Source: a virus | Taxonomy: Duplodnaviria; Caudoviricetes | Reading direction: 5' to 3' (one strand) | Length of the DNA stretch: 43,386 nucleotides | IMG/VR virus record: IMGVR_UViG_3300047202_000076 | Span: 1 to 43,386 of that record | In this document: piece by piece, positions 7,368-41,020 of the stretch | How the letters are laid out: each line of letters opens with the position of its first letter | Position numbering within the stretch: the stretch's first letter is position 1 | Program-made: the position numbers and the translations under genes | The notes under the pieces: generated by a model | Seen by the model: the letters and a program-made list of their open reading frames with translations, nothing else | What the model was told of the DNA's origin: nothing | Database searches by the model: none

Positions 7368-7766
7368 CTACCCTCTTTTCAATAACTCTCGATAACGCCT
7401 GTCAAAAGTTTTGTTGTGCGGCTGATTCGGAGCTAATAAATGTGCGTACTCATGCAATACTAACCGGGATGGTTTATCAATGATAATCGTAACAGTACCG
7501 TCATCGTTTGCCACCGTGTGATATTCGCCAAGACGTTTAATGCTGCGGAAACAAAGTGTTCCGAATAACTTATCTGCTTTATAACAATGCGCATCTGCTT
7601 TGTGCCGAAAACTACTACCAACACCACGCTTAACGCAACCACCAATAAATAACCTTGTGCATTTTTCAAAACCGGCAGGCAATATCACTTCTTTAATCTG
7701 CCGATAAAAGCTTTGCTTTTCAGCTTTTCTTTTATCAAGTTCAAATTTGCTTAATGGTTTAATCAT
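7368..7766 (-). CDS. HExxH zincin-like protein
   Basis: VLHEYAHLL...PHNKTF (SprT/M48-like pattern). Confidence 0.75.
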   Translation of the reverse strand: MIKPLSKFELDKRKAEKQSFYRQIKEVILPAGFEKCTRLFIGGCVKRGVGSSFRHKADAHCYKADKLFGTLCFRSIKRLGEYHTVANDDGTVTIIIDKPSRLVLHEYAHLLAPNQPHNKTFDRRYRELLKRG

Positions 7767-7767
7767 A

Positions 7768-7803
7768 CTTCGTGATAATCCTTTACGGAACGTATTCTTC
7801 CAA
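7768..7803. repeat. 36-bp exact copy of 40819-40854
   Basis: cttcgtgataatcctttacggaacgtattcttccaa at both loci; tcatac at 7763-7768 and 7806-7811. Confidence 0.95.
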
Positions 7804-7936
7804 ATTCATACCCTCACTTTCAACCGGTTACCTCAATATTGCCTGACCTAACCTGCCACGTCTAAAGCAAGGCCACTGGCTTGCCCTACAAGGCACGATA
7901 AGCCCTGGGGGGCATACTAACTACCAACACCACCTC

Positions 7937-7970
7937 CCGATTTTATCGACTGACTGATTACACACGACGA
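7937..7970. repeat. 34-bp exact inverted copy of 19458-19491
   Basis: Reverse complement of tcgtcgtgtgtaatcagtcagtcgataaaatcgg in the tail tubular A gene. Confidence 0.95.
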
Positions 7971-8004
7971 CATATTTCACCTTCTTTCGTTTTTACCTCA
8001 CCTT

Positions 8005-8141
8005 AAAAAGCAGGCGCCCGCCGTAGATATAGCAGAGTCCTTTTTTGGTAAAGCAAGAAAGACGTGCAACGGCGAGCGGCCTGCTCTGTGTAGTTTGTAT
8101 CGGCAGCCATTTGATTGTAAGTTTAACTCTGCCATATCTAC
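8005..8141 (-). promoter_or_regulatory. A-B-A'-B'-U leader
   Basis: 8126-8141 pairs with 8023-8038; 8069-8085 pairs with 8009-8024; U-tract follows. Confidence 0.65.
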
Positions 8142-8145
8142 CTTA

Positions 8146-8173
8146 ATTATAGCATATCTACAGACACGGTCAA
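8146..8173 (-). promoter_or_regulatory. Leftward promoter
   Basis: TTGACC-16 bp-TATAAT. Confidence 0.65.
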
Positions 8174-8281
8174 GAAAAATCTGGACAAAATATCAGCAAA
8201 TCTTAACTATTTTAGCCAGCGTAATTAACGTTTGTATCGGTTGTAACGATTAAAAATCTTCAAAAATTCCTAAAAAGTAAC

Positions 8282-8309
8282 TTGACGCAACATAGAACCG
8301 CAGTAGAAT
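8282..8309 (+). promoter_or_regulatory. Rightward promoter (divergent pair)
   Basis: TTGACG-16 bp-TAGAAT. Confidence 0.55.
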
Positions 8310-8352
8310 GGCGATTATGTAGTTAATGTCAATCTTAATGCTGATAAATTGG

Positions 8353-8464
8353 ATGGATAATACGTTAGCATATCATTGCTTTAATCCCTTTGACCGACTT
8401 GGCAATTCTGCGAAGATTGTCTGCGCTCTAACGTGCGTATCCATAAGTCGGTCAGGGATTTTTT
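8353..8464 (+). promoter_or_regulatory. A-B-A'-B'-U leader of the replication gene
   Basis: 8353-8368 pairs with 8428-8444; 8383-8400 pairs with 8445-8460; T-tract follows. Confidence 0.65.
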
Positions 8465-8487
8465 ATTAAGGGGCGTGGCGGTGTATT

Positions 8488-9321
8488 ATGGCACGGATTC
8501 GCTATCTTAAACCTGATTTCTTCAAGGACGAGGACGTAGCCAAACTACCGTTTGAAACAAGATTATTCTTTCAAGGTCTGTGGGGATTAGCAGATAAAGC
8601 CGGACGGCTCGAAGATAGACCTCTTCGATTAAAGGCAGAGATTTTCCCTTATGATAAGGTAGATGTTGAAAAATGCCTTCAGCAACTTAATAAATCAAAG
8701 GACGGCTCAGGACAACCGTTTATTAACCGTTATACAACCGATAATCAACGTTATATCCAAATAGTAACTTGGGAAAAACACCAACGACCACACCACACCG
8801 AAAAAGAATCGACAATCCCCCCTGCACCATTGGATGTTGAATATAATTTTGGTCGAGACGAAAATCTCTTTTTTGGGAATGTTCCTGGTGTGTTGCCACA
8901 CCCACATGATTTGATTGAATTGGCCGGAAAACTTCAACCAAAAGAAAAAGGAACTATAATGGAGAAGGGAATGGAGAAGGGAATGGAGAAGGAGAAGGAA
9001 AACCAGCTCGAAGCGAGTAGGGAGTTAAGGAACGGTGAAGGAACGGTTAAACAACCGTTAAAGATACGTTATTTGGATTTTGTCCTTCTTTTTGAATCAG
9101 AATATAAGAAATTAGCTGACGACCTCACCGAACCGATAGTAAAGCAGCTTATTGAGGAGCTTAATGACGGCATCGGGAGTAAAGGGTATAAATACAAGTC
9201 TCATTATCATACTATACGTTCTTGGGCGAAGAGAAAGAACCTGAATAAGCAGGAGACCACCGAAGACAGGATTAAGCGTTTGCAAGAGAAAGGATATTTA
9301 GATGGAAACAAATCAAGCTGA
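8488..9321 (+). CDS. Phage replication initiator / replisome organiser
   Basis: MARIRYLKPDFFKDE...LFFQGLWGLADKAGRL N-domain; MEKG linker repeats; C-terminal KGYKYKSHYHTIRSW. Confidence 0.85.
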   Translation: MARIRYLKPDFFKDEDVAKLPFETRLFFQGLWGLADKAGRLEDRPLRLKAEIFPYDKVDVEKCLQQLNKSKDGSGQPFINRYTTDNQRYIQIVTWEKHQRPHHTEKESTIPPAPLDVEYNFGRDENLFFGNVPGVLPHPHDLIELAGKLQPKEKGTIMEKGMEKGMEKEKENQLEASRELRNGEGTVKQPLKIRYLDFVLLFESEYKKLADDLTEPIVKQLIEELNDGIGSKGYKYKSHYHTIRSWAKRKNLNKQETTEDRIKRLQEKGYLDGNKSS

Positions 9322-9787
9322 TAAGTTTATTGAAACTGAAATCAAAGGTCTTTATCAAGAATGGAAACCTCAAGATGCTGAAAGGTCTATTTTAATGAAT
9401 GCCTTGAAGTATTTGGATTATGGCCAAGCAAGAATGGCTTTGAATAATTGGTTCATTACCCAGACAAAAACCTTCAAAAACCCACCTATTTCTCAAATGA
9501 TACAACTTTTTAGGAAAATCTATCAGCGGAACCAAAAAAGACAATCGAATGAACCTGTGTTGCTTTATACGATTATAAGGGAACGATTTGTCAAAGAAGG
9601 CAAAACTGTAAACTGTTATAGTCAACGATTATATGCTAATGTTCCTGCAAATATACCATCAGACCCTTTAGTAATCGAAAATCAAGCAGAAAAACATCGA
9701 GAAAAAATGAATCAACTTTATGGTGAAAACTATATAATTCTTTATAAAAACACACAAAATTCCCTTGACAAAACAAAGGAAATATGA
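9302..9787 (+). CDS. Hypothetical protein (possible replication accessory)
   Basis: 161-aa ORF overlapping the initiator gene; function from position only. Confidence 0.7.
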   Translation: METNQADKFIETEIKGLYQEWKPQDAERSILMNALKYLDYGQARMALNNWFITQTKTFKNPPISQMIQLFRKIYQRNQKRQSNEPVLLYTIIRERFVKEGKTVNCYSQRLYANVPANIPSDPLVIENQAEKHREKMNQLYGENYIILYKNTQNSLDKTKEI

Positions 9788-9977
9788 TAAGTAAAATGTT
9801 GTATAATTGCTCAAAATCAAATACAAAATGTCAATATGCTGGCAATAAACGGTATAATTATGGTTTTATTTCTGGCGGCTCAGGAAAAGAATAATCAAAT
9901 AGCCCATCTTATTTTTTTGCAATTATTTATCAAAATAATACTTGACATACACTATCAATCAAACGTATATAAAAAAT

Positions 9978-10433
9978 ATGTCAAATAGATTATCTCCAGA
10001 AAAAGCCAAAGCAATCGCAGCAGAATATCTAACTAACGGCCTAAATAGAGAAAAAGCTCTATTAGCTGTGGGTTATAAACCTAAATATGCAGCTAAAGGC
10101 GGTTTGAAATTATGGCAGAATATGGTATTAACTGCCGAAATTGCAAGAATGCAAGCCAAAAGCGCGTTAAAAACCGATGTTACTGTTGAATTTATAGTAG
10201 ATAAACTCTTATCTGGTCTTGCTTTAGCTGAAAGCAGGAATAATGTTGTTGCAATAGCTCGTTTTTTAGAGCTACTTGGTCGATATAAAGCGATGTTTAC
10301 CGATAACGTCAATCAGAACGATATTGTGGCGCAGCGAGAGCTTGACGAGCGCGATGCCGCAGAAGCGGCGGAGTTCGCAAGGTGGCGATTAGCACAGAAG
10401 TTTAACCTGTTACCTGCGTCCAAAGTGGGCTGA
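9978..10433 (+). CDS. terS: Terminase small subunit
   Basis: N-terminal HTH (NREKALLAVGY), ARFLELLGRYKAMFTD; probable start ATG 9978 just after a TTGACA promoter at 9942. Confidence 0.8.
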   Translation: MSNRLSPEKAKAIAAEYLTNGLNREKALLAVGYKPKYAAKGGLKLWQNMVLTAEIARMQAKSALKTDVTVEFIVDKLLSGLALAESRNNVVAIARFLELLGRYKAMFTDNVNQNDIVAQRELDERDAAEAAEFARWRLAQKFNLLPASKVG

Positions 10434-10445
10434 AAGCGGGATGAA

Positions 10446-10571
10446 ATGATTAAACGATTGATATGTCGATTATTAGGCCATAAATGGATATATTTAATAG
10501 ATGATTACTACGAAGTGCATATGCAACGTTGCAAAAGATGTGGTATGTACTTAGTAATAAACGACTTATAA
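10446..10571 (+). CDS. DUF1660-like small zinc-binding protein (41 aa)
   Basis: MIKRLICRLLGHKW...CKRCG. Confidence 0.7.
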   Translation: MIKRLICRLLGHKWIYLIDDYYEVHMQRCKRCGMYLVINDL

Positions 10572-10827
10572 TATAATAGTCCCAGAATAAAGGTTATGTT
10601 TCATTCGATTAGAGTTACGATAAATCAAAACCCTGTCCAAGCATACCTTAAGCCATACTTCGTCAATCCTGATGCATTGTGGAGCGTTTAGATGACCTTT
10701 GGAATGGCTTTACGAAAAGATGAGACCCCCCATTACCCCCCAAGCAGGCGGTGGCTTCATTTTTCATTACTTACCGCTAATTATAATTTAATTTCAATGA
10801 TGTTAAAATAGGGGTTTTGTAAAGGAA

Positions 10828-11061
10828 TTGATTATGACTTTACAAGAATTTTGTGATAAATACAAAATAGTGGTGGCTGATGCGGATATTCCTAATTTTG
10901 AGGCAATTAAATGTAAATATGGTGTTTCTATTGTGATGGAAAAGGGCAGGACTATTCTTAAGGATGCAGTATTTGGAATTCTTCGTGCTTTTTTGAATCA
11001 GTCCCGCCTAATGAAAGAGGATTTTGAAAAGATAGATTTCAAAACTGCGTTGAAAGAGTAA
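10828..11061 (+). CDS. Hypothetical protein
   Basis: ORF with AAGGA RBS, directly upstream of terL. Confidence 0.65.
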   Translation: MIMTLQEFCDKYKIVVADADIPNFEAIKCKYGVSIVMEKGRTILKDAVFGILRAFLNQSRLMKEDFEKIDFKTALKE

Positions 11062-11063
11062 AT

Positions 11064-12713
11064 ATGGTATCAGTTGTCGAAAAGAGTGATTGTGCATATT
11101 GGGCTAATTTTCACAAGATAAAGTTGCAGGGGGGTATATTTTCATTAGAGGGACGGGAGTATTTATACGAGCCGATGGAGAGCAGGTCGAGGCGAGTGTG
11201 TGCGATGAAGGCGACTGGTATGGGTTGGAGTGAGTGTTTAGGGATATTGCCTTCGATACACGGGATGATATTTGGTCGGTATCCGCAGGGTGTTTTGTAT
11301 ATGTTTCCCACGAATGATGACGTTCAGGATTTTAGTAAGAGCAGGTTTAACCCATTGATTTCAGCGAATCGGTTAGCGATAGGGAAGTATGTTAAGAGTG
11401 GGGGTATGGGAACTGACACGGCGGCTTTGAAGAAGGTGGGTAGTGCCTTTCTTTATTTGCGGGGTGCGAGGTTAAATCCTTCTGACGAGGGTACGGGAGC
11501 GAAGTTTTCTACTAAGCTGACGGGTATTCAGGTTGACAGGATAGTGCCTGACGAGATAGACCAGATGGACAGTGAGGCGATAGCGAAGGCGAGGGGTCGG
11601 ATGGGCAACGCCTGTGTGGACGGGGTGAAGGGCAGGAGTGAGGAGAGGTACATAGCCAATCCTTCTGACGAGGACAGGGGGATAGATTTATACTGGCAGC
11701 TGAGTGACCAGAGGGAATGGTTTGTAAAGTGTGTTTGTGGCGCTTTTACCTGTGCCTTGCACGAATTTATGAGTAATCCCGAAAAGTGCGTGGGATTTTA
11801 TCCTGATGGCAAAGGTTATATTCGATGTAGTAAGTGTGAGAAGCCGCTCGGCAACGCCCCTGGCCAGTGGGTTATAGGTAAGCCATCGGTTACTGATTTG
11901 GACGGTTATCAGGGCAATCATTTGAACAGTATTTATCACGACCCCGCCCGGATTTTGAGGGACTTTACGAACCCGCCGGAGAATAATTTAGGGGACGTTT
12001 TTAGGTTGGATTTAGGGCTTCCGTATTCTTCTGCCGAAGACAAATTACAGAAAGATATTGTACTTCGGTGTTGCGGTCAGGACATAATGCCGGAAAGGCA
12101 TGAAGGGCCTTGCGCTATGGGTGTTGACGTCAAGGGCGTCAAGCACGTTGTTATAGGGACGAGGACGGGCAACGACAGGTACGAGATAGTCAAGGTGGCC
12201 GAAGTGCAGAGTTTCGGCGACGTTCACGATTTGGGGAGAAGGTATAACGTTAAGAGTGCCGTTGTGGACATTAGACCTTACGAGGATGAGGCGAGGCAGT
12301 TCCAGAAATCGGAAGGGTACAAAGTATTTTTATGTGAGTACACGGAAAGTCCTTTACAGGAGGCGAATTTCAACGACAATACGGGCGTGGTCAAGGCGTA
12401 CCGGACTGGCATATTCGACGCCACGCACAGGATTATCACCAACGGCCAGGTACGATTGCCGAGACGGTGCAAGGCGGTTGAAGATTTCGCTGCCGGATGT
12501 TGCAAGTGCGTGAAGTCGAAGGAAGTGAACAAGAAGACCGGCCAGGTAGTTTTTCATTACCGCAAGACCGGAGACCAGCAGGATGATTACAGAAACGCGT
12601 TGAATTATTTTGTCCTTGCCGCTTCAGGGCATAGAATAGGAACGGTAAAAAGGAATTTTGGTTCGAGTAATGAACCGCAGTTTGTAATAAATGATAATAC
12701 TCGTTACATTTAA
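11064..12713 (+). CDS. terL: Terminase large subunit (GpA-like)
   Basis: MKATGMGWSE Walker A variant, VPDEID Walker B, Cys zinc region, nuclease MGVDV and DDYRNALNY. Confidence 0.9.
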   Translation: MVSVVEKSDCAYWANFHKIKLQGGIFSLEGREYLYEPMESRSRRVCAMKATGMGWSECLGILPSIHGMIFGRYPQGVLYMFPTNDDVQDFSKSRFNPLISANRLAIGKYVKSGGMGTDTAALKKVGSAFLYLRGARLNPSDEGTGAKFSTKLTGIQVDRIVPDEIDQMDSEAIAKARGRMGNACVDGVKGRSEERYIANPSDEDRGIDLYWQLSDQREWFVKCVCGAFTCALHEFMSNPEKCVGFYPDGKGYIRCSKCEKPLGNAPGQWVIGKPSVTDLDGYQGNHLNSIYHDPARILRDFTNPPENNLGDVFRLDLGLPYSSAEDKLQKDIVLRCCGQDIMPERHEGPCAMGVDVKGVKHVVIGTRTGNDRYEIVKVAEVQSFGDVHDLGRRYNVKSAVVDIRPYEDEARQFQKSEGYKVFLCEYTESPLQEANFNDNTGVVKAYRTGIFDATHRIITNGQVRLPRRCKAVEDFAAGCCKCVKSKEVNKKTGQVVFHYRKTGDQQDDYRNALNYFVLAASGHRIGTVKRNFGSSNEPQFVINDNTRYI

Positions 12714-12727
12714 CCGAAGGGATTAAA

Positions 12728-12928
12728 ATGTTTGGACTAACAACCAGGTATTTCAAACCACCTAAAGTAAAAACACCACCGCTCCCGCCGCCTGCGGCGA
12801 TACTGGATGTAGGCGAGGAGACCGGCGAGCAGGCGATGAAAAGGGCAAGACGCAGAAGCGGGTTTGGAAGTACGTTGATGACTGGAGCATTGACCCCGAA
12901 AACCGGAAAACGCACAACTTTAGGATAA
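12728..12928 (+). CDS. Small Pro-rich protein preceding the portal
   Basis: PPLPPP...RRSGFGSTLMTG...KRTTLG, typical of this position in podoviruses. Confidence 0.8.
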   Translation: MFGLTTRYFKPPKVKTPPLPPPAAILDVGEETGEQAMKRARRRSGFGSTLMTGALTPKTGKRTTLG

Positions 12929-12931
12929 TTT

Positions 12932-14581
12932 ATGCCTGACGAAAAAGCTGAAATGATTATTCGGGAAGCTGAGGCGGAAAAAAGCAAGGCCGCCAATTTT
13001 ATGAACCTCTATCAGCAGTTCGCCGATTTGGGTTATCCTGTCGAAAATCAAATCACTACAAAAAGGACGCCTGGCGAGGATAAATCTCTCGAAATAAGAG
13101 ACCCGACCGCTATATTCGCCCTCGACAAGGCCACGTCTAATTTTATCAGGGCATGGATTCCGAGAGAGAAATTTTTCTTTAACATAAAACTTCAAAACCC
13201 GCAAAGAAATACTTACGATGCGAAACAATGGTGCGCACGGGCAGTTGAATTGGCTCACGATTATCTTTTCGCAAGCAATTATACAATGCAGCTTCACAAT
13301 ACAATCAAAGCTGCTCTTGGTTTCGGGACGGGCAATTCATACTCCGAATGGTCTGACAAAAAGATGAAACTGATTTTTCGGGACTGGCACGTTTCGTCTT
13401 ATACCTTTAAGCAGGACGAGGAAGGCATGGTCGATACCATGATTTTGCAGTATGACCGTACCGCCCGCCAGCTTGTCGATAAATACAACGACCCTGGCGA
13501 TGAGGTTGTCAAGGCCGCCGAAGAGCTTAAAACCGAAAGTAACCTGTTCCCGATTATTCATTTTGTCAGGCCGAGATATAGGAAGACCTTCAAGTTAATC
13601 AGCAAGCTCAATATGCCTTTCGAGAGCGTTTTCGTGAACGTCAAAGAAAAGAAAATTATGAAGGAAGGCGGGTACGAGGAGTTTCCGTTTGCCGTGCCGA
13701 GATGGGAGCAGGCGTCTTGTGAAAAGTGGGGCAGGGGCCGGGGAACTGCAATGCTGTCATTTATAAAAGAATTACAACAGATGGCTAAAGACTATATGGA
13801 ATTATGTAATAGGTTGGCCGGACATTCTCCGATTGAGGTTGTTAAAAATAACGTTGAGGGTGAAGTTAATATGAAGCCGGATGGCAGGACGGATGTTTAC
13901 GAAAAAGGTTCGATAAATCCTATACATCCTGCAATACAAGGCAATTATCCCGTTACGGTTGAGGCGTTACAGGAAAAAAGGAAAATTATAGAAAAAGGAT
14001 TTTACGTCGACGTGTTCTCGCAATTTGGCCAGCTCAAAGGCGACAGGCGGACAACCACCGAAATAGAGTTACGATACGAAGAAAGTTTGGGTGACCTTAT
14101 GTCGCCGGTGTCGAGATTGGAAAATGAAGATTTCACGCCGCAATTAACGAGGGTAATAAATATCCTTATTCGCAAGGGTAAAATTCCCGCCCCGCCTTCG
14201 GAGCTTCGAGGTCAGAATTACGGATTAGAATATATGGGCAAGTTTGCTATGGCCATGCGAGATATGCAGGCGAGAGGATTCGAGAGAGGAATGACGCTTA
14301 TTGGCAATATGTCAGCCATGTTCCCAGAGGTCGGGGACGAAATCAATCTTGGCAGGACTATACCGGACATTCTCGTCAATTATGGTATGAAGGTCGAGCA
14401 TCTCAACACGCCCGAAGAAAAAGTGGCCATTCGTCAGCAACGTGAGCAAGAACGGCAACAGCAGAAGTTGGCTATGATGGCCCAGGTGGCAGGCAAGACG
14501 TATTCCGATACGTCAAAGAAAGCGGACGAAGGCAGTCCTGCTGCCGAATTACAGGGTGCATTAGTGGGAGCGGGAACGTAA
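12932..14581 (+). CDS. Portal (head-to-tail connector), T7/Bbp21-like
   Basis: EGGYEEFPFAVPRW...EKWGRG, RTTTEI, YGLEYMG motifs; 549 aa. Confidence 0.92.
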   Translation: MPDEKAEMIIREAEAEKSKAANFMNLYQQFADLGYPVENQITTKRTPGEDKSLEIRDPTAIFALDKATSNFIRAWIPREKFFFNIKLQNPQRNTYDAKQWCARAVELAHDYLFASNYTMQLHNTIKAALGFGTGNSYSEWSDKKMKLIFRDWHVSSYTFKQDEEGMVDTMILQYDRTARQLVDKYNDPGDEVVKAAEELKTESNLFPIIHFVRPRYRKTFKLISKLNMPFESVFVNVKEKKIMKEGGYEEFPFAVPRWEQASCEKWGRGRGTAMLSFIKELQQMAKDYMELCNRLAGHSPIEVVKNNVEGEVNMKPDGRTDVYEKGSINPIHPAIQGNYPVTVEALQEKRKIIEKGFYVDVFSQFGQLKGDRRTTTEIELRYEESLGDLMSPVSRLENEDFTPQLTRVINILIRKGKIPAPPSELRGQNYGLEYMGKFAMAMRDMQARGFERGMTLIGNMSAMFPEVGDEINLGRTIPDILVNYGMKVEHLNTPEEKVAIRQQREQERQQQKLAMMAQVAGKTYSDTSKKADEGSPAAELQGALVGAGT

Positions 14582-14812
14582 ATGATTGATATAAGATGTG
14601 AAACCTGTGATTGCTGGAATCGTATAAATAACACCGATAATGGTTCTTGCCACAGATACCCGCCAATACCGTACCCGATACCGATACAGGGGCCCCGATT
14701 AGTCGGGTCGTCCGCCCCGCAAATCGGGCAGGTATGCCTGTTCCCGATGGTCGGAAAAAATATGGTATGCGAAGAATGGCGTTGTAACGATGGCAACGAT
14801 AAAGAGGTTTAA
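14582..14812 (+). CDS. Small Cys-rich protein
   Basis: CETC...GSCHRYPP...FP...CEEW. Confidence 0.75.
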
Positions 14813-14814
14813 TT

Positions 14815-14988
14815 ATGCCATTAAAAGCAGGTTCATCACAGAAAACAATATCGTCTAATATATCGGAATTAGTTAATGCAGGTTATCCTGATGGGCACGG
14901 ACAGGCGGGAGCAATTGCTTTTTCACAGGCAAGAAAATCGGGTGCATTAAAACGCCGAACTAAACTACGGCGAAGGAAACATAAATGA
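14815..14988 (+). CDS. Conserved small basic phage protein (57 aa)
   Basis: [25 protein letters not shown]...[11 protein letters not shown]; below the ORF-track cutoff. Confidence 0.8.
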
Positions 14989-15143
14989 TAGAAAAATTAA
15001 AATTTAAAGACATAATTAAAGTGCCGGGTAAGGTTCTTGTTGGCAATGATAAGAAAAAAGGAGATTTTTCCTGTAAAGCACAAGAGAAAATAATTATTGA
15101 TAAAATCAATGAAATTATCGAAAAGTTAAATAAGGAGCAATAA
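14985..15143 (+). CDS. Hypothetical protein (52 aa)
   Basis: ATGA overlap; MIEKLKF...[11 protein letters not shown]. Confidence 0.65.
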
Positions 15144-15144
15144 A

Positions 15145-15423
15145 ATGGCATTACCTACACGGGAAGAAATAACCGAATTCAATCGGCGCGGCGGCAGCAA
15201 AACGGCGGAAGGCAGGGCGTATCAGCGTAGTTGGATGGCTGGAAAAGATAAAACTCCTGCTGTTCCGCCGAAAAAGAAAAAGAAATCTGCTCTTAAAAGA
15301 CTGGCGGCGCGGATGAGAAGAATGGGGGAAGGAGAGACCGTTAGGACTAAAGACGTTTCAGGCGGGTTAGAAAGAGCCGGTTTGAATGAGAAAGAAATCC
15401 AGAGGTTAAAAACAGGAAGATGA
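15145..15423 (+). CDS. Small basic hypothetical protein
   Basis: AAGGAG RBS, 92 aa. Confidence 0.75.
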   Translation: MALPTREEITEFNRRGGSKTAEGRAYQRSWMAGKDKTPAVPPKKKKKSALKRLAARMRRMGEGETVRTKDVSGGLERAGLNEKEIQRLKTGR

Positions 15424-15683
15424 CGGAAGAAGAAATACAGTTAGTCAACGCTTACCGGAATTGCTTTACGGCTGATGCGGGCAAAATAGTTTTGTCTGAT
15501 TTGAGAAAGATTTTTAAATTTGATTTATCGGTAATTCCGATAGGCGAAGATTCTCATATAGACGTAAATAGGTTGATTCGCAATGAAGGACAAAGGTCTG
15601 TGTTAATTCATATATTGACACAAATGGCAAAAGATTTGAATAAACCCGTTCCCGAACCAGTTAAAGATGAAAATTATATATGA
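15420..15683 (+). CDS. Bbp19-like conserved podovirus protein
   Basis: F...GKIVLSDL...NEGQRSVLIHI motif between portal and scaffold. Confidence 0.85.
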   Translation: MTEEEIQLVNAYRNCFTADAGKIVLSDLRKIFKFDLSVIPIGEDSHIDVNRLIRNEGQRSVLIHILTQMAKDLNKPVPEPVKDENYI

Positions 15684-15719
15684 CCTTACCAGTTAAAGAT
15701 GAAAATTATATATGACCTT
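15656..15719. repeat. Perfect 32-bp tandem duplication
   Basis: accagttaaagatgaaaattatatatgacctt twice. Confidence 0.95.
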
Positions 15720-16183
15720 TAGGAAGTTTTTTATGACACTTGCGACATACGGGTATAACATCAAGAGGTTTGGAATAGTCAGGATGAGGTGTTGGTAGTA
15801 GTTTTCGGCACAAAGCACAGATGATAATCATTTGCTTGTTGTTGGCAATAATTGCATTTAAGTTGTTTTGGAAAGGACAACCCCTTGTCCCTAATGGCAT
15901 TATTGATAATTCGGTGTGCTTTTTTAATGAGTGGATTAAGTTTTGCATATTTTTTATTTGCTCGCCTAATTGCCAATTTACCATTTTCAGTTTTGCTGTA
16001 TTGTTTGTATCTGTTGATTATTTTTTTGGTATGAGTGAGATAGTATTTATGTTGGCTAATACTTACGCAAAGTTTGCATATATACTGACAACCATCTTTT
16101 GCGCTTCGGTTTTTATGAAAATACATCAATGGTTTAGTTTGCTTGCAATGAGGACATCTTTTCGATATGATTTTATCAGGCAT
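15706..16183 (-). pseudogene. HNH-type endonuclease gene frameshifted by a 34-nt insertion
   Basis: KRCPHCKQTKP...FHKNRSAKDG..CKLC N-terminus; deleting 15787-15820 restores CNYC...DYHHPDYSKPLDVIPVCRKCH. Confidence 0.85.
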
Positions 16184-16284
16184 TTTCGTTCCTTTCAACG
16201 AAACTGTTTAGAGCCATTCACCCCGACTGTCGGGGTGCGTGGCTCATCTTATATTAAAACTATCAATTAGTAAAGGAGTAAATT

Positions 16285-17259
16285 ATGCCGGAAGAAATAA
16301 TAGCCACAACCCCGACCCCTGCCGAAGGGACAACGGGGACGACTGACGCGATTGATATTTCAAAATATATCAATAATGACGGTACGTTCAGGGAGGGTTA
16401 TAAAGATGCTCTCGTGCCGGAAGAATTGAGAACGAACAAGTTCTACGACATCTTCCACGACATTCAGGGTATTATGAAGGCTGCCGGGCACCAGGCGGTA
16501 ACTTTAGGTAAATACGGGACTACGAAGGGCGTATTACCGATAAATGAAAAATCCTCACCTTACGAGGTTGAGGCGTTCCGTGCGGCTATGGGCGTGCCGA
16601 AGGATGGGGCAGGTTATAAATACGCCCCGCCAGAGGACATTTCGTCAGAGGATTTAAGCCCTGAATTCATGAAGGAAGTAAACGAAAGTTTCAATAAAGC
16701 ACATTATACACAGGCGCAATATGACACAGCAATAAATCTTTATACGAATCACCTGCGACTTATCGAAAAGGTGGTCGATGAGGAACTTTCCCGACAGGTC
16801 TCGGATGCTGAGAATCGCCTGCGGGGCGAATGGGGCGATATGTTCGATGCGAGAACAAATCTTGCAAGGGCGTTCATTACCAAGATGGCAGGTGGCTGGA
16901 GTCCTGAAAAATACAATGAGTTGTTTGGTGAAGAAGTAACCATCCAGAATGAGGACGGCACTCAAGAGACAATGAGAAAAGGCGGAATTAACGATGCTGA
17001 ATTTGCGCCGTTCCGACCATTGCTGCTGGACTTATTTGCTACCATCGAGGAAAAATACGGAATTGAGGATAGTGCTTTATTTTCTGAATTTACAGGTGCA
17101 GGTGTAAAGAGCATACAACAGCAGATTGAGGATATTGAGGCAACGCCTGGCTTTATGGATGGTAAACTGCGTGGCTCGATGGATTCAAAAGACAGGGCAA
17201 AATATGAGGAATTAGTAAAACAACGGGATGCGCTTTACAAAAAGATGTATCCAGGTTAA
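16285..17259 (+). CDS. Capsid scaffolding protein
   Basis: Position before MCP; acidic; AENRLRGEWG motif. Confidence 0.8.
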   Translation: MPEEIIATTPTPAEGTTGTTDAIDISKYINNDGTFREGYKDALVPEELRTNKFYDIFHDIQGIMKAAGHQAVTLGKYGTTKGVLPINEKSSPYEVEAFRAAMGVPKDGAGYKYAPPEDISSEDLSPEFMKEVNESFNKAHYTQAQYDTAINLYTNHLRLIEKVVDEELSRQVSDAENRLRGEWGDMFDARTNLARAFITKMAGGWSPEKYNELFGEEVTIQNEDGTQETMRKGGINDAEFAPFRPLLLDLFATIEEKYGIEDSALFSEFTGAGVKSIQQQIEDIEATPGFMDGKLRGSMDSKDRAKYEELVKQRDALYKKMYPG

Positions 17260-17271
17260 TATAAGTAAAAT

Positions 17272-17390
17272 CCTGGTCAATCCCTCACGGGGAAACCAGG
17301 TTGACATTCTGAAAGAAGGACATCGACCGGATGTAAAACGCAGGAGTCCCTGGTAACAGATAACTCTCCAAAAGTGGTTTGAATAATTAG
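17272..17390 (+). promoter_or_regulatory. Structured leader of the capsid gene
   Basis: CCTGGT/ACCAGG stem with inner CCC/GGG hairpin and further short stems in a 150-bp intergenic gap. Confidence 0.4.
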
Positions 17391-17413
17391 AAACTGTTTT
17401 TAAGGAGATTATT

Positions 17414-18373
17414 ATGTTACCAGTAACGATTGATAACGCTTTCAAACGGGAGTATGCGGCGACATTCGAGCACGTTTTTCAACAAACAATGTCCGAATTG
17501 CGCCAGACCGTCAGGAACGAGCATCAGGAAGGCGAGATGAAATTGTGGGACTTTGTCGGCGAGACCAGCGGTCAATGGGACTTGCCGAGAAATTCGGATA
17601 CGCCTGATATTCCCACACCTTATACGAGAAGAAAAAATGTTTTGCACAGGTGGAACTGGGGCGAATATATCGACACCTGGGATAAGATTAAAGCCCTCAA
17701 AGACCCTACCAGTGATACTATTAAGGCCGCTGTATCCGCCGCAAATCGAGCTTTTGACGAGCGAGTTCTCCAGGCTGCTGCTGCGATTGTTTATACGGGC
17801 AAAGAGGGTTCTACTGCCGTTAATAGCTACGATGTAGGTGAATGCCGTCTTATCAATAGTGATGGCACTGAAGTAACGGCGGGCAGTAATTTTTCGGCTG
17901 CGACAGAAATTGCACTCAAGCTCAAAACAATCGCCCTTATCGGCAAATTGATGGACGATGCGTCCGTTCCGCAAAATGACAGGCATATCGTTTGCAATAC
18001 AGACCAGAAGTGGTATCTGCTCGGCTCGACAAAGGCGACAAGCGCCGATTATAACGGCATCAGGGCATTGGTTCACGGTGAGATGAACACTTACCTCGGA
18101 TTCACCTTCCATTGGCTGCCGAGCAATAGGTTTACTGTCAGCTCCGTTGAGGCAAGCAGCGATTGTCTCGAATGCTGCGCTTATCATAAGAGCGCAATGC
18201 TGCTCGGAATGGCAAAAGATATTGTTACAAGTGTTGATACGATTCCGACAAAAAAGAACAGTGTACTTGCTCAGGCCGAGATGTTTGTCGGTGCAGTCAG
18301 ATTGCAGGGGCCTGGCGTGGTCAGATTCCTGCTCAAGAAATCGCCGACACTTGATTTTGCGCAAACTGATTAG
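17414..18373 (+). CDS. Major capsid protein
   Basis: QQTMSELR, RNSDTP, IDTWDKIK...DPTS, ALVHGEMNTYLGFTF, GAVRLQGPGVV; AAGGAG RBS. Confidence 0.92.
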   Translation: MLPVTIDNAFKREYAATFEHVFQQTMSELRQTVRNEHQEGEMKLWDFVGETSGQWDLPRNSDTPDIPTPYTRRKNVLHRWNWGEYIDTWDKIKALKDPTSDTIKAAVSAANRAFDERVLQAAAAIVYTGKEGSTAVNSYDVGECRLINSDGTEVTAGSNFSAATEIALKLKTIALIGKLMDDASVPQNDRHIVCNTDQKWYLLGSTKATSADYNGIRALVHGEMNTYLGFTFHWLPSNRFTVSSVEASSDCLECCAYHKSAMLLGMAKDIVTSVDTIPTKKNSVLAQAEMFVGAVRLQGPGVVRFLLKKSPTLDFAQTD

Positions 18374-18413
18374 TTTTGAATTGAATTGAAATTCTTTTTA
18401 AGGAGATTTTATT

Positions 18414-19220
18414 ATGAAAGAATTAACTCCAAACAGGAGAAATCTGGGTCTGGAAATTGAGCGAGATGGCAGGCCGATGGATAATGGTTTGTATGTCGCC
18501 ACCGATGACCAGCTTTTCCACGCAGGCAAAAGAATCCTATCGTGGGATGGTTGCGTCTATAAATATTCTTATGGCGTAACCACAATGATAGAGGATAGAC
18601 TTGCATGGCAAAGTTATTCTCAACATATTGATTATGGCGCTACCGTTGCCGCCACCACCGTTGCCGGAGATTCATCTTTTAAGGTGGATATAAGTGCCGC
18701 TATGGGTAAGGCCGATGATGGTGTAATCGCAGAAGATGAATTGATGGGCGGTCGTGTAATTGTGTATTCCGATACAATCGCAACCATACAAAGAGGCATT
18801 GTCGGGAATAGCGCTGTTGCTACCGGCGAAATGACGTTGTACGTAGATGCCCCGATTGACAGAATTTTGACTGTCGATGCCAGCTTCGTTGAAGCAATAT
18901 GCAATCCCTGGCGATTCGTTAGCACTGGTGAAGGCGGCGGAGTTCGTAGTATGGTTGGGTTGCCCAATGTTGTAACGGCGGCTACTGCAAAGTGGTTATG
19001 GCTTCAAACGTGGGGGCCGTGCTGGGTTGCGCCTCAAGGCCCTCTTGCCGATGCTGCTCACGATTTGGAGGTTGTTGCGAGGTCTGATGGCAGTGTTCAG
19101 GCACACGAGTACGGGACTGCGATGGCGACATTGCAACAGCACGTTGGGTTCATTCTCTCTCACGCTGCTAACGGAACTCAAGGAGCACCGTTCTGGATGA
19201 TGCAGATTTCACCTTGTTAA
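18414..19220 (+). CDS. Putative capsid decoration/structural protein
   Basis: Follows MCP; DGCVYKY...WLQTWGPC. Confidence 0.7.
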   Translation: MKELTPNRRNLGLEIERDGRPMDNGLYVATDDQLFHAGKRILSWDGCVYKYSYGVTTMIEDRLAWQSYSQHIDYGATVAATTVAGDSSFKVDISAAMGKADDGVIAEDELMGGRVIVYSDTIATIQRGIVGNSAVATGEMTLYVDAPIDRILTVDASFVEAICNPWRFVSTGEGGGVRSMVGLPNVVTAATAKWLWLQTWGPCWVAPQGPLADAAHDLEVVARSDGSVQAHEYGTAMATLQQHVGFILSHAANGTQGAPFWMMQISPC

Positions 19221-19232
19221 AGGACAATAAAG

Positions 19233-19427
19233 ATGAATTTTGGTCGTGCAGAGTTAGTACCGAATAACGTAAGTGATAAAGACCTCAAAGATGAGGTCAA
19301 TAGGCGGACAGCCAGGGCGGGTTACACCACCCGCTTTGGCGAATCGCCTTCCAGAACAAAAATTATGGCACAACCGCCAACGAAACAGTATGAAGAAAAT
19401 TACGTCAGGATTTTCGGACACGATTGA
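19233..19427 (+). CDS. Hypothetical protein
   Basis: 64-aa ORF ending YEENYVRIFG. Confidence 0.7.
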   Translation: MNFGRAELVPNNVSDKDLKDEVNRRTARAGYTTRFGESPSRTKIMAQPPTKQYEENYVRIFGHD

Positions 19428-19435
19428 GGTAATTT

Positions 19436-20335
19436 ATGTCTCTAACGGAATTAGAAATCGTCGTGTGTAATCAGTCAGTCGATAAAATCGGTGCGAAGAA
19501 AACACTTACATTGGCTATCCAGACTTCCAACGAGGGTATTAAGTGCAACTTGCATTATTCTCAGACCAGGGATGCTTTGCTTCGCAGTTTCGATTGGAAT
19601 TTTGCTTCTGCCCGTGCCGAATTGACTCTTTTGCAGACATTGACGCTTGATTCTTCGCCCAAACACGATGTGTGGGCGGTCGGCGATGTGATAACTGGAA
19701 CTTCGTCTTATACAACCGCTACAGTTGTTTCCGTTACGAGCAATATAGAATACGAAATTGCATATATATCCGGCGATTTCACGGATGGCGAAACGATAAC
19801 CAACGCAATCGATATTGCAGTTCTTACTTGGGAAGGCATACCGCTCGAATACGAAGATGAGACCTTGCTTTGGTATGATGAATCGGCAAGTGATGATGTT
19901 AAATGCGGCACAGGGTATCCGACAGTTGCAGATTTACCACCCGATTTTGAGTGGAGCTATAAATTCAAATTACCAGATGATTTTTTGCGGTTAAAGTCGG
20001 ATTACACGGCGGATGAGACGCTTGGCGTTAATGACAGGTTTACGATAGAAGGCAAATATCTACTGACTAACGATGATGAGGCCGAGGTTCGATACATCAG
20101 GAAAGTTACCGACCCTGCGGAATTCGACCCGTTATTTACGGAAGTTCTGATTTTGCAACTTGCTCTTAAATTAGTTAATCCTCTGGCCGGAACGAATACA
20201 TCTCAATTAAAGCGGGATTTGAAACAAGACCTTGCTGATGCAATGAGACGAGCAAGAACGGTATGCAGTACAGAAATAAATGTCAGTGGTAGAAGCGACT
20301 GGAACCTGGCGAGGTATGGTTCGGGAAAAGTATGA
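19436..20335 (+). CDS. Tail tubular protein A (adaptor) with inserted domain
   Basis: VCNQSVDKIG, RDALLRSFDWNFA, KLPDDFLRL, FDPLFTEVL. Confidence 0.85.
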   Translation: MSLTELEIVVCNQSVDKIGAKKTLTLAIQTSNEGIKCNLHYSQTRDALLRSFDWNFASARAELTLLQTLTLDSSPKHDVWAVGDVITGTSSYTTATVVSVTSNIEYEIAYISGDFTDGETITNAIDIAVLTWEGIPLEYEDETLLWYDESASDDVKCGTGYPTVADLPPDFEWSYKFKLPDDFLRLKSDYTADETLGVNDRFTIEGKYLLTNDDEAEVRYIRKVTDPAEFDPLFTEVLILQLALKLVNPLAGTNTSQLKRDLKQDLADAMRRARTVCSTEINVSGRSDWNLARYGSGKV

Positions 20336-20847
20336 AACGAATATCATTAACACAAAATAAGTTTGCAATTGTTGATGATGAAGATTACGCCGAACTCTCT
20401 AAATATAAATGGTGTGCGGCAAACCATAAAGGTAAATGGTGTGCAGTTCGATATTCAAAAGAAGAATATAGAAAAACAGGAAGTCGTGGCACTCTTGTTT
20501 CTATGCACAGACAAATAATGAAGGCTGAAAAAAGAGAACAGATTGACCACAAAGACGGAAACGAATTAAACAATCAAAAAGAGAATTTAAGATTTTCAAC
20601 GCAACAGCAAAATGTTTTCAATCAAATGCCTATTAGACAAGGAACGAGCAAATACAAAGGTGTATCGTGGTGCAGGGAATCCCACGATTGGTATGCAAGT
20701 ATCAAACATAACGGGAAAAGTAAAAATCTTGGACATTTTATTAACGAAATAAATGCCGCAAAAGCATACGATACTGCGGCAAAACAATTATTTGGGGAGT
20801 TCGCAAGAACTAATTTCCCAAAAGAAAGAAAGGTGCTTTACGGCTGA
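20332..20847 (+). CDS. HNH-AP2 homing endonuclease
   Basis: AIVDDED, MHRQIM, IDHKDGNELNNQKENLR, SKYKGVSW, AAKAYD. Confidence 0.92.
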   Translation: MKRISLTQNKFAIVDDEDYAELSKYKWCAANHKGKWCAVRYSKEEYRKTGSRGTLVSMHRQIMKAEKREQIDHKDGNELNNQKENLRFSTQQQNVFNQMPIRQGTSKYKGVSWCRESHDWYASIKHNGKSKNLGHFINEINAAKAYDTAAKQLFGEFARTNFPKERKVLYG

Positions 20848-21202
20848 CGCAAAAGAAAAAATAGGTATGGCTTTATTAAGCTCTACGGTAGTGGATATGA
20901 AAACGGCACAGGCAAACACGCTCTATACCGTTCCAACTGGAAAGGTTTGCCGGATTTCTCACGTTGTTGTGAGAGACCCGACCGCGTCTCTCGCAGGGGG
21001 GACGAGTTACAGCATTACAAACTGGAAACAGGCGTTTAGTCTGGCCACCGTAACAGGAGCAACTTATTATATCGTTATTGACAACGAAAACGTTGCGTAT
21101 GTTGAAACTGCTGCGGGAGTGTCAATCCAGCTTACCGTTACTACGGGTTCGACCCTGGCGGCAAATGCAACGATAGATTTGTTCGGCTACCTCTCTGCTT
21201 AA
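20840..21202 (+). CDS. Putative virion protein; start appears to be ACG
   Basis: AAGGTG RBS then ACG GCT GAC GCA AAA GAA AAA; LYTVPTGK motif; alternative ATG 27 nt downstream. Confidence 0.7.
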   Translation, partial: TADAKEKIGMALLSSTVVDMKTAQANTLYTVPTGKVCRISHVVVRDPTASLAGGTSYSITNWKQAFSLATVTGATYYIVIDNENVAYVETAAGVSIQLTVTTGSTLAANATIDLFGYLSA

Positions 21203-21211
21203 AGGTGATTG

Positions 21212-26038: not shown

Positions 26039-26040
26039 AA

Positions 26041-37957: not shown

Positions 37958-38407
37958 TTAGTTGCCTTTGAGACCTGCAATCAATGCCTTGCCAATTTTG
38001 AACCAATCTTTGTCTTCCAGTTTTTTCTGTACTTGCGCCTTAACTATATCACCAATAGTTCCTTCCGTTGTTGGCACGTTTGCTACGTCTTCGATGGCAT
38101 TTACAACAGCTGCCGTAGTGATTTCTATGGCTTCGTATTTAGTGGCGGCCTTAACTTTATTGCGGTAATTATTATAAGCGGTTGCGATAGCTGAAAAGAT
38201 ACTGCCAACGGTGATTATCACATAGCCCCAGGGCAAACCCGCTCCTGTTGCCGCTCCGCCCGCCGCTCCTGCCACACCACTGACCACATTGGCATTGTTT
38301 GGGTCAAATAACCAATCCAGAGTCTTACAACCACCTATTGTCATTAGCGATACTGCTACAAGCAGTAAGATTGCGGAACAAATTCTTTTTTTCCAAATCA
38401 TTTTCAT
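37958..38407 (-). CDS. Putative lipoprotein with an extra TM helix (possible lysis component)
   Basis: MKMIWKKR-hydrophobic-IGGC lipobox-like; Gly/Ala-rich TM segment. Confidence 0.7.
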   Translation of the reverse strand: MKMIWKKRICSAILLLVAVSLMTIGGCKTLDWLFDPNNANVVSGVAGAAGGAATGAGLPWGYVIITVGSIFSAIATAYNNYRNKVKAATKYEAIEITTAAVVNAIEDVANVPTTEGTIGDIVKAQVQKKLEDKDWFKIGKALIAGLKGN

Positions 38408-38591
38408 TTTTTTCTCCTTATCAAAAACCTTATTGTTTTACTGTACCTGATTAGATTATACGCATACTTTATACCAAAGGCAATACACATTCTTACCTGT
38501 CCGCAGAATTGCCGGACATTGGGGCAGGCTAAATAAATACATATTATCACAAGACCAAGAGAGACAAACCAAATTATTATAAGTGCTATGG

Positions 38592-39509
38592 TTATTTTAA
38601 TCCCCTAACTTGCTCAATTTTATCACAAAGCAATTCTTCCGCTTCTGCAAGGCAAACACCCCATTTGTGTTTTACATTAGCAGGGTCTCTTGTGTGAATG
38701 TCATAAGATAAATCCGCTATGTCTTTCAACTGTTCAATCCTTTTCTCTTGCCGAAGAATCTCATTGGTTTTTAATTGCAATTCGAGATGGTTGATAAGAG
38801 TGTGTTTTCTATAAGGATTCATGCAAGTTGAATTTTTCGAATCATACGAAGGACAAACTTCTGGACTTTCTGTTTCTGGCTGGCAATCAGAGCAAGAACT
38901 TATTGGACTTTGCCTGCCACCCGTAAAATTCTGGCCTAATACTACTCCTGTGCCTTTGCAAGAAGGACAAGATTCTGAGTAGCCAACTTCTCTTGCGCCA
39001 TTTTCTTTTGAAATATAAACTTCTCCTGTCCCATTGCATTTTTCGCAGACTGTTTTTTCTATTTTTGGTGTATCATCAAAATCCCTACCTTGTTCTATGT
39101 TGCAAAGTTCTGAAGGTAAAATACCCAGCCAGGCGGCGAATTTAAGTATTCCCATATTGAGAACATTTAGTCGAAATAACTTAAGGGCTTGACCGTTATT
39201 GAGGGCTTGACTTCTTTCCTTATCAGTTTCATCTATTGGTTTTTCAGCTTTCAGAAGGGCAAGGGCTTTTACAACATTTTCGTCAGCATCACATATTTCT
39301 GTTAATTTATAACAATCAGAACCGATAATTTTTCTTGCATCTTCCAGCAACTTCACCGCCTCTGCTATTTTAGAGGCGTGGCATTGAAGGATAAAAAGTA
39401 ACTGTTGTAATCCCGCCTTATGTGCGTGTACATCTATAACAGAACAATCATCAGGGCAGTTATCAATAAAACTTATTTCTTCTTTTAATAGTTCAATCGA
39501 TTGGCTCAT
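38592..39509 (-). CDS. Mosaic protein with XRE-like HTH and CxxCxGxG zinc motifs
   Basis: KFAAWLGILPSELCNIEQGR; CEKCNGTG, CPSCKGTG. Confidence 0.7.
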   Translation of the reverse strand: MSQSIELLKEEISFIDNCPDDCSVIDVHAHKAGLQQLLFILQCHASKIAEAVKLLEDARKIIGSDCYKLTEICDADENVVKALALLKAEKPIDETDKERSQALNNGQALKLFRLNVLNMGILKFAAWLGILPSELCNIEQGRDFDDTPKIEKTVCEKCNGTGEVYISKENGAREVGYSESCPSCKGTGVVLGQNFTGGRQSPISSCSDCQPETESPEVCPSYDSKNSTCMNPYRKHTLINHLELQLKTNEILRQEKRIEQLKDIADLSYDIHTRDPANVKHKWGVCLAEAEELLCDKIEQVRGLK

Positions 39510-40179
39510 CTTTTATCCTTTTCAAAATTACAGGGATTCCCAACTTTGATAATTCCCAATGTAGCTGTTGAACTTGTTCGATTGATGGTTCGGGTAAGTT
39601 GTTCTTTTTGGTGTCATATCCAATCCAAATTAGTTGCGGTTTAACTATACCTATTAATCCCAACAATGCCCCTATACCAAAATCCATTATTGGTTCACAA
39701 GTTATCATTTTATTAGGATGTTTGATTTTAGCAAAGTCAAGACATCTTTTCATTAAAGAAGGGGCTTTGGAATAATATCTTGTAATTTCTTTATCCGTTT
39801 CTATCGTTGTCCCCAAAATTACATTGTCAGGCCATTTGACTCGCTCGAAAGTCTTTGGATTCTTGGATTGAATAAGGAAATTCTTGTCTGCATTACTTTC
39901 CATTATACCTCCAATTTCATTAAGATATTCCGTAGAACAGAAAGAAATATCACCCATCGAGCAACAAAAGATAAACTGCATATATCCCGTCGATGGCAAT
40001 TTTTGGCCAAGTTGCTCTGGATGTTCGTGCGGAGTAAAGTCGTAGCATTTCTGGCAATTATGTTTCTGCCGTTTCGCCTGTGCCTGAAAAGAGTTGCGAC
40101 AGTAAACACAATCGAACTTGCAGCCGACAAAAGGATTCCATTGAAACACAGACAGGTTATACATATTGCTTTTGCCCAT
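39493..40179 (-). CDS. DUF5131 (Gp37/Gp68) radical-SAM-like protein
   Basis: WNPFVGCKFDCVYC, CSMGDI, QSKNP, LGTTIE, TCEPI. Confidence 0.88.
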   Translation of the reverse strand: MGKSNMYNLSVFQWNPFVGCKFDCVYCRNSFQAQAKRQKHNCQKCYDFTPHEHPEQLGQKLPSTGYMQFIFCCSMGDISFCSTEYLNEIGGIMESNADKNFLIQSKNPKTFERVKWPDNVILGTTIETDKEITRYYSKAPSLMKRCLDFAKIKHPNKMITCEPIMDFGIGALLGLIGIVKPQLIWIGYDTKKNNLPEPSIEQVQQLHWELSKLGIPVILKRIKDEPID

Positions 40180-40185
40180 AAATCC

Positions 40186-40422
40186 TCAATCCCAATCATT
40201 CATATATTTGGACAACTTAAAACATCCCATCCAATCTGCCCCGTTTTTTAATAGTACCCACCAATTATGGAAAATTACTACACATTCATTTTTTCCATTT
40301 TTGAGATATTGTCGGGCTTTATTAAAACCTTTTTTGCCGTTGAAAACCTTGCCTTTGAAAGTGCCAAGAAATTCATCCAAATCTATTTTTGGACTTTGGT
40401 TTATAAGTTCCTGTAACATCAA
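40186..40422 (-). CDS. Hypothetical protein
   Basis: 78-aa ORF. Confidence 0.6.
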   Translation of the reverse strand: MMLQELINQSPKIDLDEFLGTFKGKVFNGKKGFNKARQYLKNGKNECVVIFHNWWVLLKNGADWMGCFKLSKYMNDWD

Positions 40423-40712
40423 TCCTTAATCGGCTTAATTATAAAATAATAATGGCCACCTCGCAAAGTTTTCTGCCAGTATAAAGCCCAAAACATAGTG
40501 CCTTGAAGTTCTCCGATGATTTCCTCATTTCCTGACCATCCTCCAGTATGCAGTTCCAATTTTAGAACTTTCTTTCCTCTTAATTTATAACCCCATCCTG
40601 ATTCCCACCAAATATCTTTTAGGAAATCCAATAGACCTTGTATGTCTTTGGCATCCCAATCTTTGAGAATTTTTAATTCTTCTTCGGTAGGGTATCCATC
40701 TTCATCAGGCAT
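40419..40712 (-). CDS. Conserved phage hypothetical protein
   Basis: DEDGYPTEEEL...LHTGGWSGNEEII...RGGHY. Confidence 0.85.
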   Translation of the reverse strand: MPDEDGYPTEEELKILKDWDAKDIQGLLDFLKDIWWESGWGYKLRGKKVLKLELHTGGWSGNEEIIGELQGTMFWALYWQKTLRGGHYYFIIKPIKD

Positions 40713-40783
40713 AAATCAATCCTTCTGTAATTCTTTATAGGCATTTTTGTAGTACAATAATAATCCTTCTGTAATTTCAGGAC

Positions 40784-41020
40784 TTAAATTTGCACCTCAA
40801 TAGCTTCACACCAACAATCTTCGTGATAATCCTTTACGGAACGTATTCTTCCAATATCGGAAGAAGATTCTTTACGTCTAATTTTAGAAACATATATACG
40901 TATTTGACCGAGACACCATTTGCAACGAACAACAGTTCTATCGTAAACTACAGGACTTTGTGCCTTTAATGGATATTGTAATTCCATTTCTAAATCCTCA
41001 ATCCTTATATCAATCCTCAC
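40784..41020 (-). CDS. Hypothetical protein
   Basis: GTGA overlap with ninG; CKWC...HEDCWC. Confidence 0.55.
   Translation of the reverse strand: MRIDIRIEDLEMELQYPLKAQSPVVYDRTVVRCKWCLGQIRIYVSKIRRKESSSDIGRIRSVKDYHEDCWCEAIEVQI

Follow-up and report, generated by a model that had tools for sequence, protein, structure and literature searches.

The genome and its repeated fragments

The virus record IMGVR_UViG_3300047202_000076 (Duplodnaviria; Caudoviricetes) is a phage genome of 43,386 nucleotides, and the window analysed here is this whole 43.4-kb record, whose ends overlap by 126 nt. The source of the phage DNA is freshwater-sediment (lake-sediment) metagenome runs. Family scans find genes for a terminase, a portal-like head-tail adaptor, a capsid, tail proteins and a lambdoid-type replication initiator, together with a Sak4-like ATPase, NinG, a DNA methyltransferase, three intact HNH genes and a tRNA-Pro; many of the open reading frames (ORFs) of the window match no family at all in the PHROGs and Pfam scans. 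Our subject is three short stretches of the phage's own coding sequence that are found again at distant sites in this genome.

The three pairs are exact. In pair A, 15788-15817 is the reverse complement of 7596-7625 (30 nt); in pair B, 7937-7970 is the reverse complement of 19458-19491 (34 nt); and in pair C, 7768-7803 is identical to 40819-40854 (36 nt). They had been noticed in a first-pass annotation of this DNA, and all three were reproduced. The dispersed exact repeats beyond these pairs drop to 21, 20 and 16 nt, and the genome holds no non-paralogous dispersed copy of 22-29 nt or of more than 36 nt. The expectation for one chance pair of 30-mers is about 3e-9. All three are genuine second copies, at new sites, of coding DNA that is the phage's own.

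No integrase, reverse transcriptase (RT), transposase or Cas protein was matched among the ORFs scanned (49 in PHROGs; 29 + 13 window ORFs in Pfam). An Rfam scan of the genome returned tRNA only, and no CRISPR RNA family. The earlier statement that the genome has no CRISPR repeats, transposase or RT therefore stands for the ORFs scanned and the Rfam scan. No direct repeats flank copies A, B and C as they would in a CRISPR array or viral mini-array, and with no transposase, Cas1 or RT encoded among the ORFs scanned the copies do not qualify as a transposon, a casposon or an RT-driven element.

Copy A interrupts an endonuclease gene

Donor A (7594-7625, minus strand) consists of codons for the conserved GVGSSFRHKA motif of a SprT-like HEXXH protein of 132 amino acids (7368-7766, minus strand), the start codon of which is backed by 17 homologs. 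Its copy lies in a free-standing gene for an HNH/endonuclease-VII-like protein (15706-16180, minus strand), recognized by its profile match to phrog_2340 and not named in the first-pass annotation. Insert A (15788-15821, minus strand) is 34 nt long and comprises 32 nt of donor plus a 2-nt slip, which refines the first description of 30 bp inside a 34-nt insertion. One end is clean, with 0 nt of microhomology; the other has 2-4 nt of homology, and it is the ragged one, on the side where the donor carries ATC. The insert shifts the reading frame between two His codons and is a pure 34-nt insertion with no target duplication. A profile search finds phrog_2340 positions 8-132 and 135-159 in two frames, and the intact G002 homolog has an uninterrupted DYHHP where the window has the insert. 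The endonuclease gene follows a Bbp19-like gene, and at this place it is not seen in five of five aligned relatives.

A second lesion (D) lies 68 nt from A. It is a perfect 32-nt tandem duplication (15656-15719, plus strand), with a match length equal to its period and no microhomology, and so belongs to the same size class as the inserts. It covers the overlapping 3′ ends of the convergent Bbp19-like and endonuclease genes, which are now separated.

Upstream of the endonuclease gene there is a hairpin (16211-16245; near 12150-12280 in L133). Its outer stem is kept in the G002 homolog and the inner part is different; it is possibly a regulatory or mobility element. Another tandem duplication, of 30 nt and in frame (10 codons), lies in an unknown early ORF (5509-5570, minus strand). 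It has one mismatch and an end overlap, and was not counted as a further event.

Copies B and C lie in one early leader

Insert C (7768-7803, minus strand; 36 nt) lies between the start codon of the SprT-like gene, 1 nt away, and a GAGG-type ribosome-binding site, with an empty state that has to be reconstructed. When the insert is removed in silico, GAGG comes to lie 9 nt upstream of the start codon. Over the last 12 nt the match to the homologous locus L024 is then 6/12, compared with 2/12 with the insert; L025 is uninformative (2 and 2). Donor C (40819-40854, minus strand) lies inside a gene for a conserved Cys/His protein of 67 amino acids (40784-40987), and nine homologs align across it. 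Insert B (7937-7970, minus strand; 34 nt) directly follows an ATG with an AAGG-type ribosome-binding site; this ATG opens no ORF of more than 18 codons with or without the insert. Donor B (19458-19491, plus strand) provides 5′ codons of a tail-tubular-like gene (19436-20335), relatives of which align from residue 1 and are gapless at the donor.

Judged by these homologs, all three donors are native coding sequence, and copying was one-directional. The two leader copies and the copy in the endonuclease gene are therefore the insertions. The first-pass claim that one copy of each pair is in-frame coding sequence holds for all three donors; its complement, that the other copy interrupts something, holds for A and is probable for B and C.

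Copies B and C are 133 nt apart in a single leader, and both are sense to the mRNAs of their donors. A putative sigma-70-like promoter (8146-8173, minus strand), proposed from its 11/12 consensus match alone, lies upstream of this leader. Downstream, a small early gene of the RDTYRRTGRGKTGFEM family (7088-7266, minus strand) is broken: relative to five homologs it carries a stop codon and, at 7218-7227, a tandem duplication of 5 nt; because of these two lesions we read the early operon that holds B and C as decaying. The B/C arrangement is missing at the homologous loci L024 and L025. At the loci of SprT-like homologs (80 metagenome and 21 viral) alignment is confined to the gene, with no close relative of the early region in the collections reached. 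The similarity of the leader to L024 is not significant (213/1000 shuffles), and 7780-8200 gives chance matches only in INPHARED.

Immediately beside B is a possible template-switch chimera (7909-7933, minus strand), in which a 6-mer common to both joins 14 nt identical to 7614-7627 to a stretch that matches 7065-7083 at 17/19 nt. It was noticed post hoc, and was reached in 1/400 and 2/400 shuffles.

Folding of the whole leader is no better than that of shuffled sequences (z = -0.84), and 8000-8145 gives z = -2.65. Here a 16-nt inverted repeat (15/16; 8023-8141, minus strand) can close a stem-loop of about 120 nt immediately behind the promoter-like site at 8173; a GC hairpin and a T run come next. 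There is no Rfam match, and the region is possibly a small RNA.

At the donor end of pair C, a diverged second copy of the C-terminal codons of NinG (EGLLLYYK...; 40713-40790, minus strand) follows the gene for the 67-amino-acid protein. This suggests that the latter gene arrived by recombination inside ninG.

The junctions recur in other metagenome runs

We compared the window with Logan runs, X2, X3, X4 and X7 over 6000-20600 and X5, X6, X8 and X10 over 4600-9400; the low-share runs X8 and X10 combine thin coverage with other organisms. Copy A is bridged by a single record in X4 (15690-16531), and copy B by single records in X7 (2021; 7780-8710) and X6 (7902-8139). Other contigs break where a genuine 34-36-nt repeat would break a 31-mer graph. 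The A flanks are loose ends in X5; the flanks of donor C are loose ends in X2, X3, X4, X5 and X8, and on one side only in X6; and records of X2, X3 and X5 stop at 7797, as a true 36-nt repeat would force. Recipient C, with 31 nt required on either side, is bridged by none of the records listed. The junctions are thus carried by contigs of other runs, and are not confined to chimeric reads of one assembly.

No joint or indel indicative of an empty allele at A, B or C was found in any of the eight runs, site A being covered in four runs only and contigs dropping rare variants. For the runs on 6000-20600 just two single-letter differences are listed across 14.6 kb. With no empty allele and so few differences, the inserted state looks fixed in a nearly clonal lineage. 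The IMG/VR record L001 is 100% identical across 14711-27447, and is possibly from the same sample.

A loose end at 15787 in X3 was considered as an alternative insert and rejected, as it reads as another endonuclease gene with an intact HHPDY motif, absent from the window. Spacer-like double loose ends at 4941-4974 and 5122-5158 were likewise rejected as host spacers (unlike flanks, 80% likeness). In viral contigs a 16-nt pattern from the flanks occurs at 18 loci, and of these only the identical record L019 is related.

Lengths, flanks and ends of the inserts

The inserts are 34 (A), 34 (B) and 36 nt (C), the net length being demonstrated for A alone; the donor part of A and the period of D are both 32. 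A range of at most 2 nt among three lengths has P = 0.002, 0.014 and 0.051 under three null length models, and with the exact-match lengths of 30, 34 and 36 the clustering has P = 0.01-0.23. Microhomology at A is 0 nt at one end and 2-4 nt at the other, and at D it is 0 nt; the junctions of B and C are unreadable without empty alleles.

Target duplication was sought at A, B and C and not found: the best in-register identity is 0.40-0.45 over 20-45 nt, and the longest common flank word is 5-7 nt. The mutual resemblance of the recipient flanks is weak, with P = 0.03 when gaps are allowed and P = 0.57 when they are not; 102/780 start-context pairs reach the B-C score, and two-sided similarity among the empty sites is at background (33 against a mean of 35.7). 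If the motif may reach 1-2 nt into the donor, a choice made post hoc, each of the three donors has ATC across its left end, on the same strand; this motif is weak, and the sharing has P = 0.005-0.04 on the same strand and 0.02-0.12 on either strand.

Proposed capture of spacer-length fragments at breaks

The copies are real and unusual, and belong to one genome. How the fragments arose, which enzyme joined them and whether the products are neutral we infer as follows. When a CRISPR-active host is infected, protected fragments of phage DNA of 32-38 nt would pile up while the phage genome is being cut. These fragments would be made by the host from sibling phage genomes, probably as CRISPR prespacers. 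A break would then be closed over a fragment with 0-2 nt of microhomology, either by ligase-based end-joining or by ligation of a Cas1 half-site intermediate. Survivors would keep the scar in non-essential places, here a selfish endonuclease gene and gene starts in an early operon under decay. Later the lineage would spread. The scars would be inert, with no phage-encoded system at work. In this reading, to which we give roughly 0.45 probability, end-joining or half-site ligation captured spacer-length pieces of phage DNA (probably prespacers) at breaks, and they were kept where harmless.

The capture of protected fragments at breaks fits a size near 34 nt, an origin in the phage itself, blunt joints and targets that can be spared. 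The clustered lengths also speak for it, and the ATC at the donor ends may be a PAM-like signal. The recipients appear dispensable because the relatives lack the endonuclease gene and a neighboring early gene is doubly broken. The absence of microhomology at one end of A and at D argues for end-joining. In vivo prespacers of the type I-E system of Escherichia coli (PMC6787059) have strands of 32-34 and 36-38 nt with one blunt end and one 3′ overhang derived from the protospacer-adjacent motif (PAM). The one clean and one ragged, ATC-side end of insert A is consistent with a fragment of this kind. Primed type I adaptation thus resembles the phage copies in strand lengths, in the nature of the two ends and in cutting fragments from attacked DNA; the accessible text presents its prespacers as substrates for the array, in contrast to capture into the phage genome. 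A study on a mycobacteriophage (PMC12848934) describes repair of Cas9 breaks by host non-homologous end joining (NHEJ; Ku/LigD), a homology-independent closure of Cas-made breaks in phage DNA that captures heterologous DNA, as we envisage here; the part consulted describes no fixed insert length, whereas the inserts here are 34-36 nt. Cas1-Cas2 attacks non-CRISPR sites in vitro (PMC6698737), and one-ended products are described as normally reversed (PMC8390005).

The first-pass proposal had been broader, namely a process that captures fixed-length self fragments. What survives of it is the real, one-directional copying and the clustered lengths (P 0.002-0.05). Three of the routes in it find no support: canonical full-site integration of prespacers by Cas1-Cas2, given the lack of repeat-length target duplication; type IIB fragments, given the lack of a shared central bipartite motif; and joining through the annealing activity of the Sak4-like protein, given microhomology of 0-2 nt where it can be read.

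Several points weigh against the capture of prespacers. In a PAM test no strictly adjacent trimer is common to the three donors, the offset of ATC varies by 1 nt among them, and ATC differs from the AAG PAM of type I-E. ATC is not known to serve as a PAM in type I systems. One end of every pair falls within 375 nt (7596-7970; P ~0.002), and dispensability, which explains this clustering in the case of B and C, leaves donor A unexplained. No empty alleles of B and C were found from which to read their net insertion length and microhomology. All three events belong to one lineage, and two details, the 2-nt slip in A and the chimera next to B, suggest a polymerase that switched templates. A search of genome contigs for the host, with its Cas system, spacer length, PAM and end-joining genes, gave one distant match and no host. 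Finally, a comparable isolated, sharp-edged copy was found in 0/32 other phage records (1,292,805 bases), these being seven capsid kin (one complete), six Sak4 kin (two complete, ~80% protein identity), nine with SprT-like homologs and ten unrelated.

This first test of generality therefore failed; the feature is rare and, to date, confined to one lineage. Dispersed exact repeats of at least 28 nt were present in five of the 32 records, and each was rejected: G003 and G008 as not sharp-edged (flank identity 9/12 and 7/12), G006 because its two collinear matches look like a gene duplication, G007 as a multi-copy motif and G033 as a coding repeat array. Literature searched by titles and the beginnings of abstracts, with subscription papers largely outside its scope, contained no description of spacer-length self-insertions in phages lacking target-site duplication (TSD).

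Alternative origins

The main rival, in our view a doubtful one, is templated insertion: the polymerase would switch templates while phage replication is repaired or restarted. A broken 3′ end would prime briefly at a distant site, perhaps with annealing help from the Sak4-like protein, the gene for which is present, copy about 30 nt and return; the similar lengths would be a coincidence, or the run length of a polymerase or single-stranded DNA-binding protein. Beside B, 25 nt have the look of two local templates united at a shared 6-mer, albeit noticed post hoc, and insert A has both its slip and short homology at one end. Moreover, all pairs involve 7.6-8.0 kb, adjoining the GC-skew minimum at 8299 and the replication-initiator gene, and the length clustering is just P = 0.05 under the steepest null model. 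Against this, one end of A and both ends of D have no microhomology, and non-paralogous dispersed copies of 22-29 nt or over 36 nt are missing from the genome. Minihomology recombination in T4 after CRISPR cleavage also leaves scars at breaks in a phage genome with very short homology, but it yields deletions (PMC8262927) flanked by 3-13-nt repeats rather than blunt insertions of 34-36 nt.

Full-site integration by Cas1-Cas2 duplicates a repeat-length stretch of the target. Off-target integration of spacers generates 'neo-CRISPR' units (Nivala, Shipman and Church 2018, as cited in PMC7054753, PMC6698737 and bioRxiv 10.1101/148544). The phage copies are like these in that spacer-sized DNA has landed outside a CRISPR array. 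They differ in that A, B and C have no flanking duplication, and in that the sole repeat-length duplication, D, has no insert. Because this defining test fails we do not class them as canonical neo-CRISPR units, though they would work like ectopic spacer capture. All four lesions might be explained together as halves of aborted Cas1-Cas2 attacks on the phage genome, which we consider unlikely. A, B and C would be spacer without duplication, the free target end having been ligated straight to the prespacer, and D would be duplication without spacer, left by the filling and joining of two staggered nicks. For a type I-C array a repeat length of 32 bp has been used (bioRxiv 2022.05.30.494039).

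It is improbable that the fragments were released by an enzyme cutting on both sides of its site (type IIB, or a modification-dependent equivalent) and re-ligated at other cut ends. BcgI-type enzymes do release fragments of a similar size, 27-34 bp, and the window as a whole strongly avoids CTAG (observed/expected 0.02), GATC (0.03), CGCG (0.14) and CATG (0.19), so the host would restrict DNA. However, such fragments hold a central bipartite recognition site (PMC1892151), and no bipartite motif (2+2 to 3+3, gaps of 3-8, within 3 nt of the center) is common to A-C or A-D, although 335/3000 random triples share one; the lengths also range from 32 to 36.

Selection for function is quite improbable. 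B and C would act in the early leader RNA as guides or decoys for an RNA-guided protein of host or phage, and A would be a deliberate knock-out. This would suit the placing of B and C in one leader behind a strong promoter-like site, the folded region upstream and a state that looks fixed in eight runs, but the copies have no flanking repeats, Rfam finds only tRNA, the leader as a whole is not folded better than shuffles are, B and C both have the sense orientation of their donor mRNAs, and the arrangement is missing at L024 and L025.

An assembly chimera or library artefact, suggested by the metagenomic origin of the window and the unbridged recipient C, is scarcely credible when the junctions recur in contigs from different studies and years and single records bridge A and B. 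The probability beyond prespacer-type capture, template switching, restriction fragments, function and artefact belongs to causes that we have not named.

Implications for phage and host

If prespacer-sized fragments are indeed joined into phage DNA without target duplication, CRISPR adaptation or its by-products would mutate the viruses that it targets, by a route unseen by searches for neo-CRISPR units. The signature, an isolated, sharp-edged two-copy match of 32-38 nt with one copy in a gene, can be searched for in any phage database, and the length peak and donor flanks would report the spacer length and PAM of a host without its genome. If the lesions are aborted Cas1-Cas2 attacks, CRISPR adaptation would be a direct insertional mutagen, handing phages ready-made knock-outs, and TSD-less scars would be a class missed by repeat-spacer-repeat searches. 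Should template switching be responsible instead, the genome would offer a clear case, from nature, of a phage with templated insertions over long range, interesting if less surprising.

Other features of the genome

The tRNA-Pro (CGG) gene lies in the early region (955-1027, minus strand). An array of 21 units of 15 nt (4194-4511, minus strand) encodes a pentapeptide-type repeat protein. A peptide motif of the LTYEG/LTWEG type recurs in several tail proteins (21444-21464, 24237-24297 and within the tail-tubular-like gene at 19436-20335), and two of the tail genes that bear it have a 21-nt exact DNA match.

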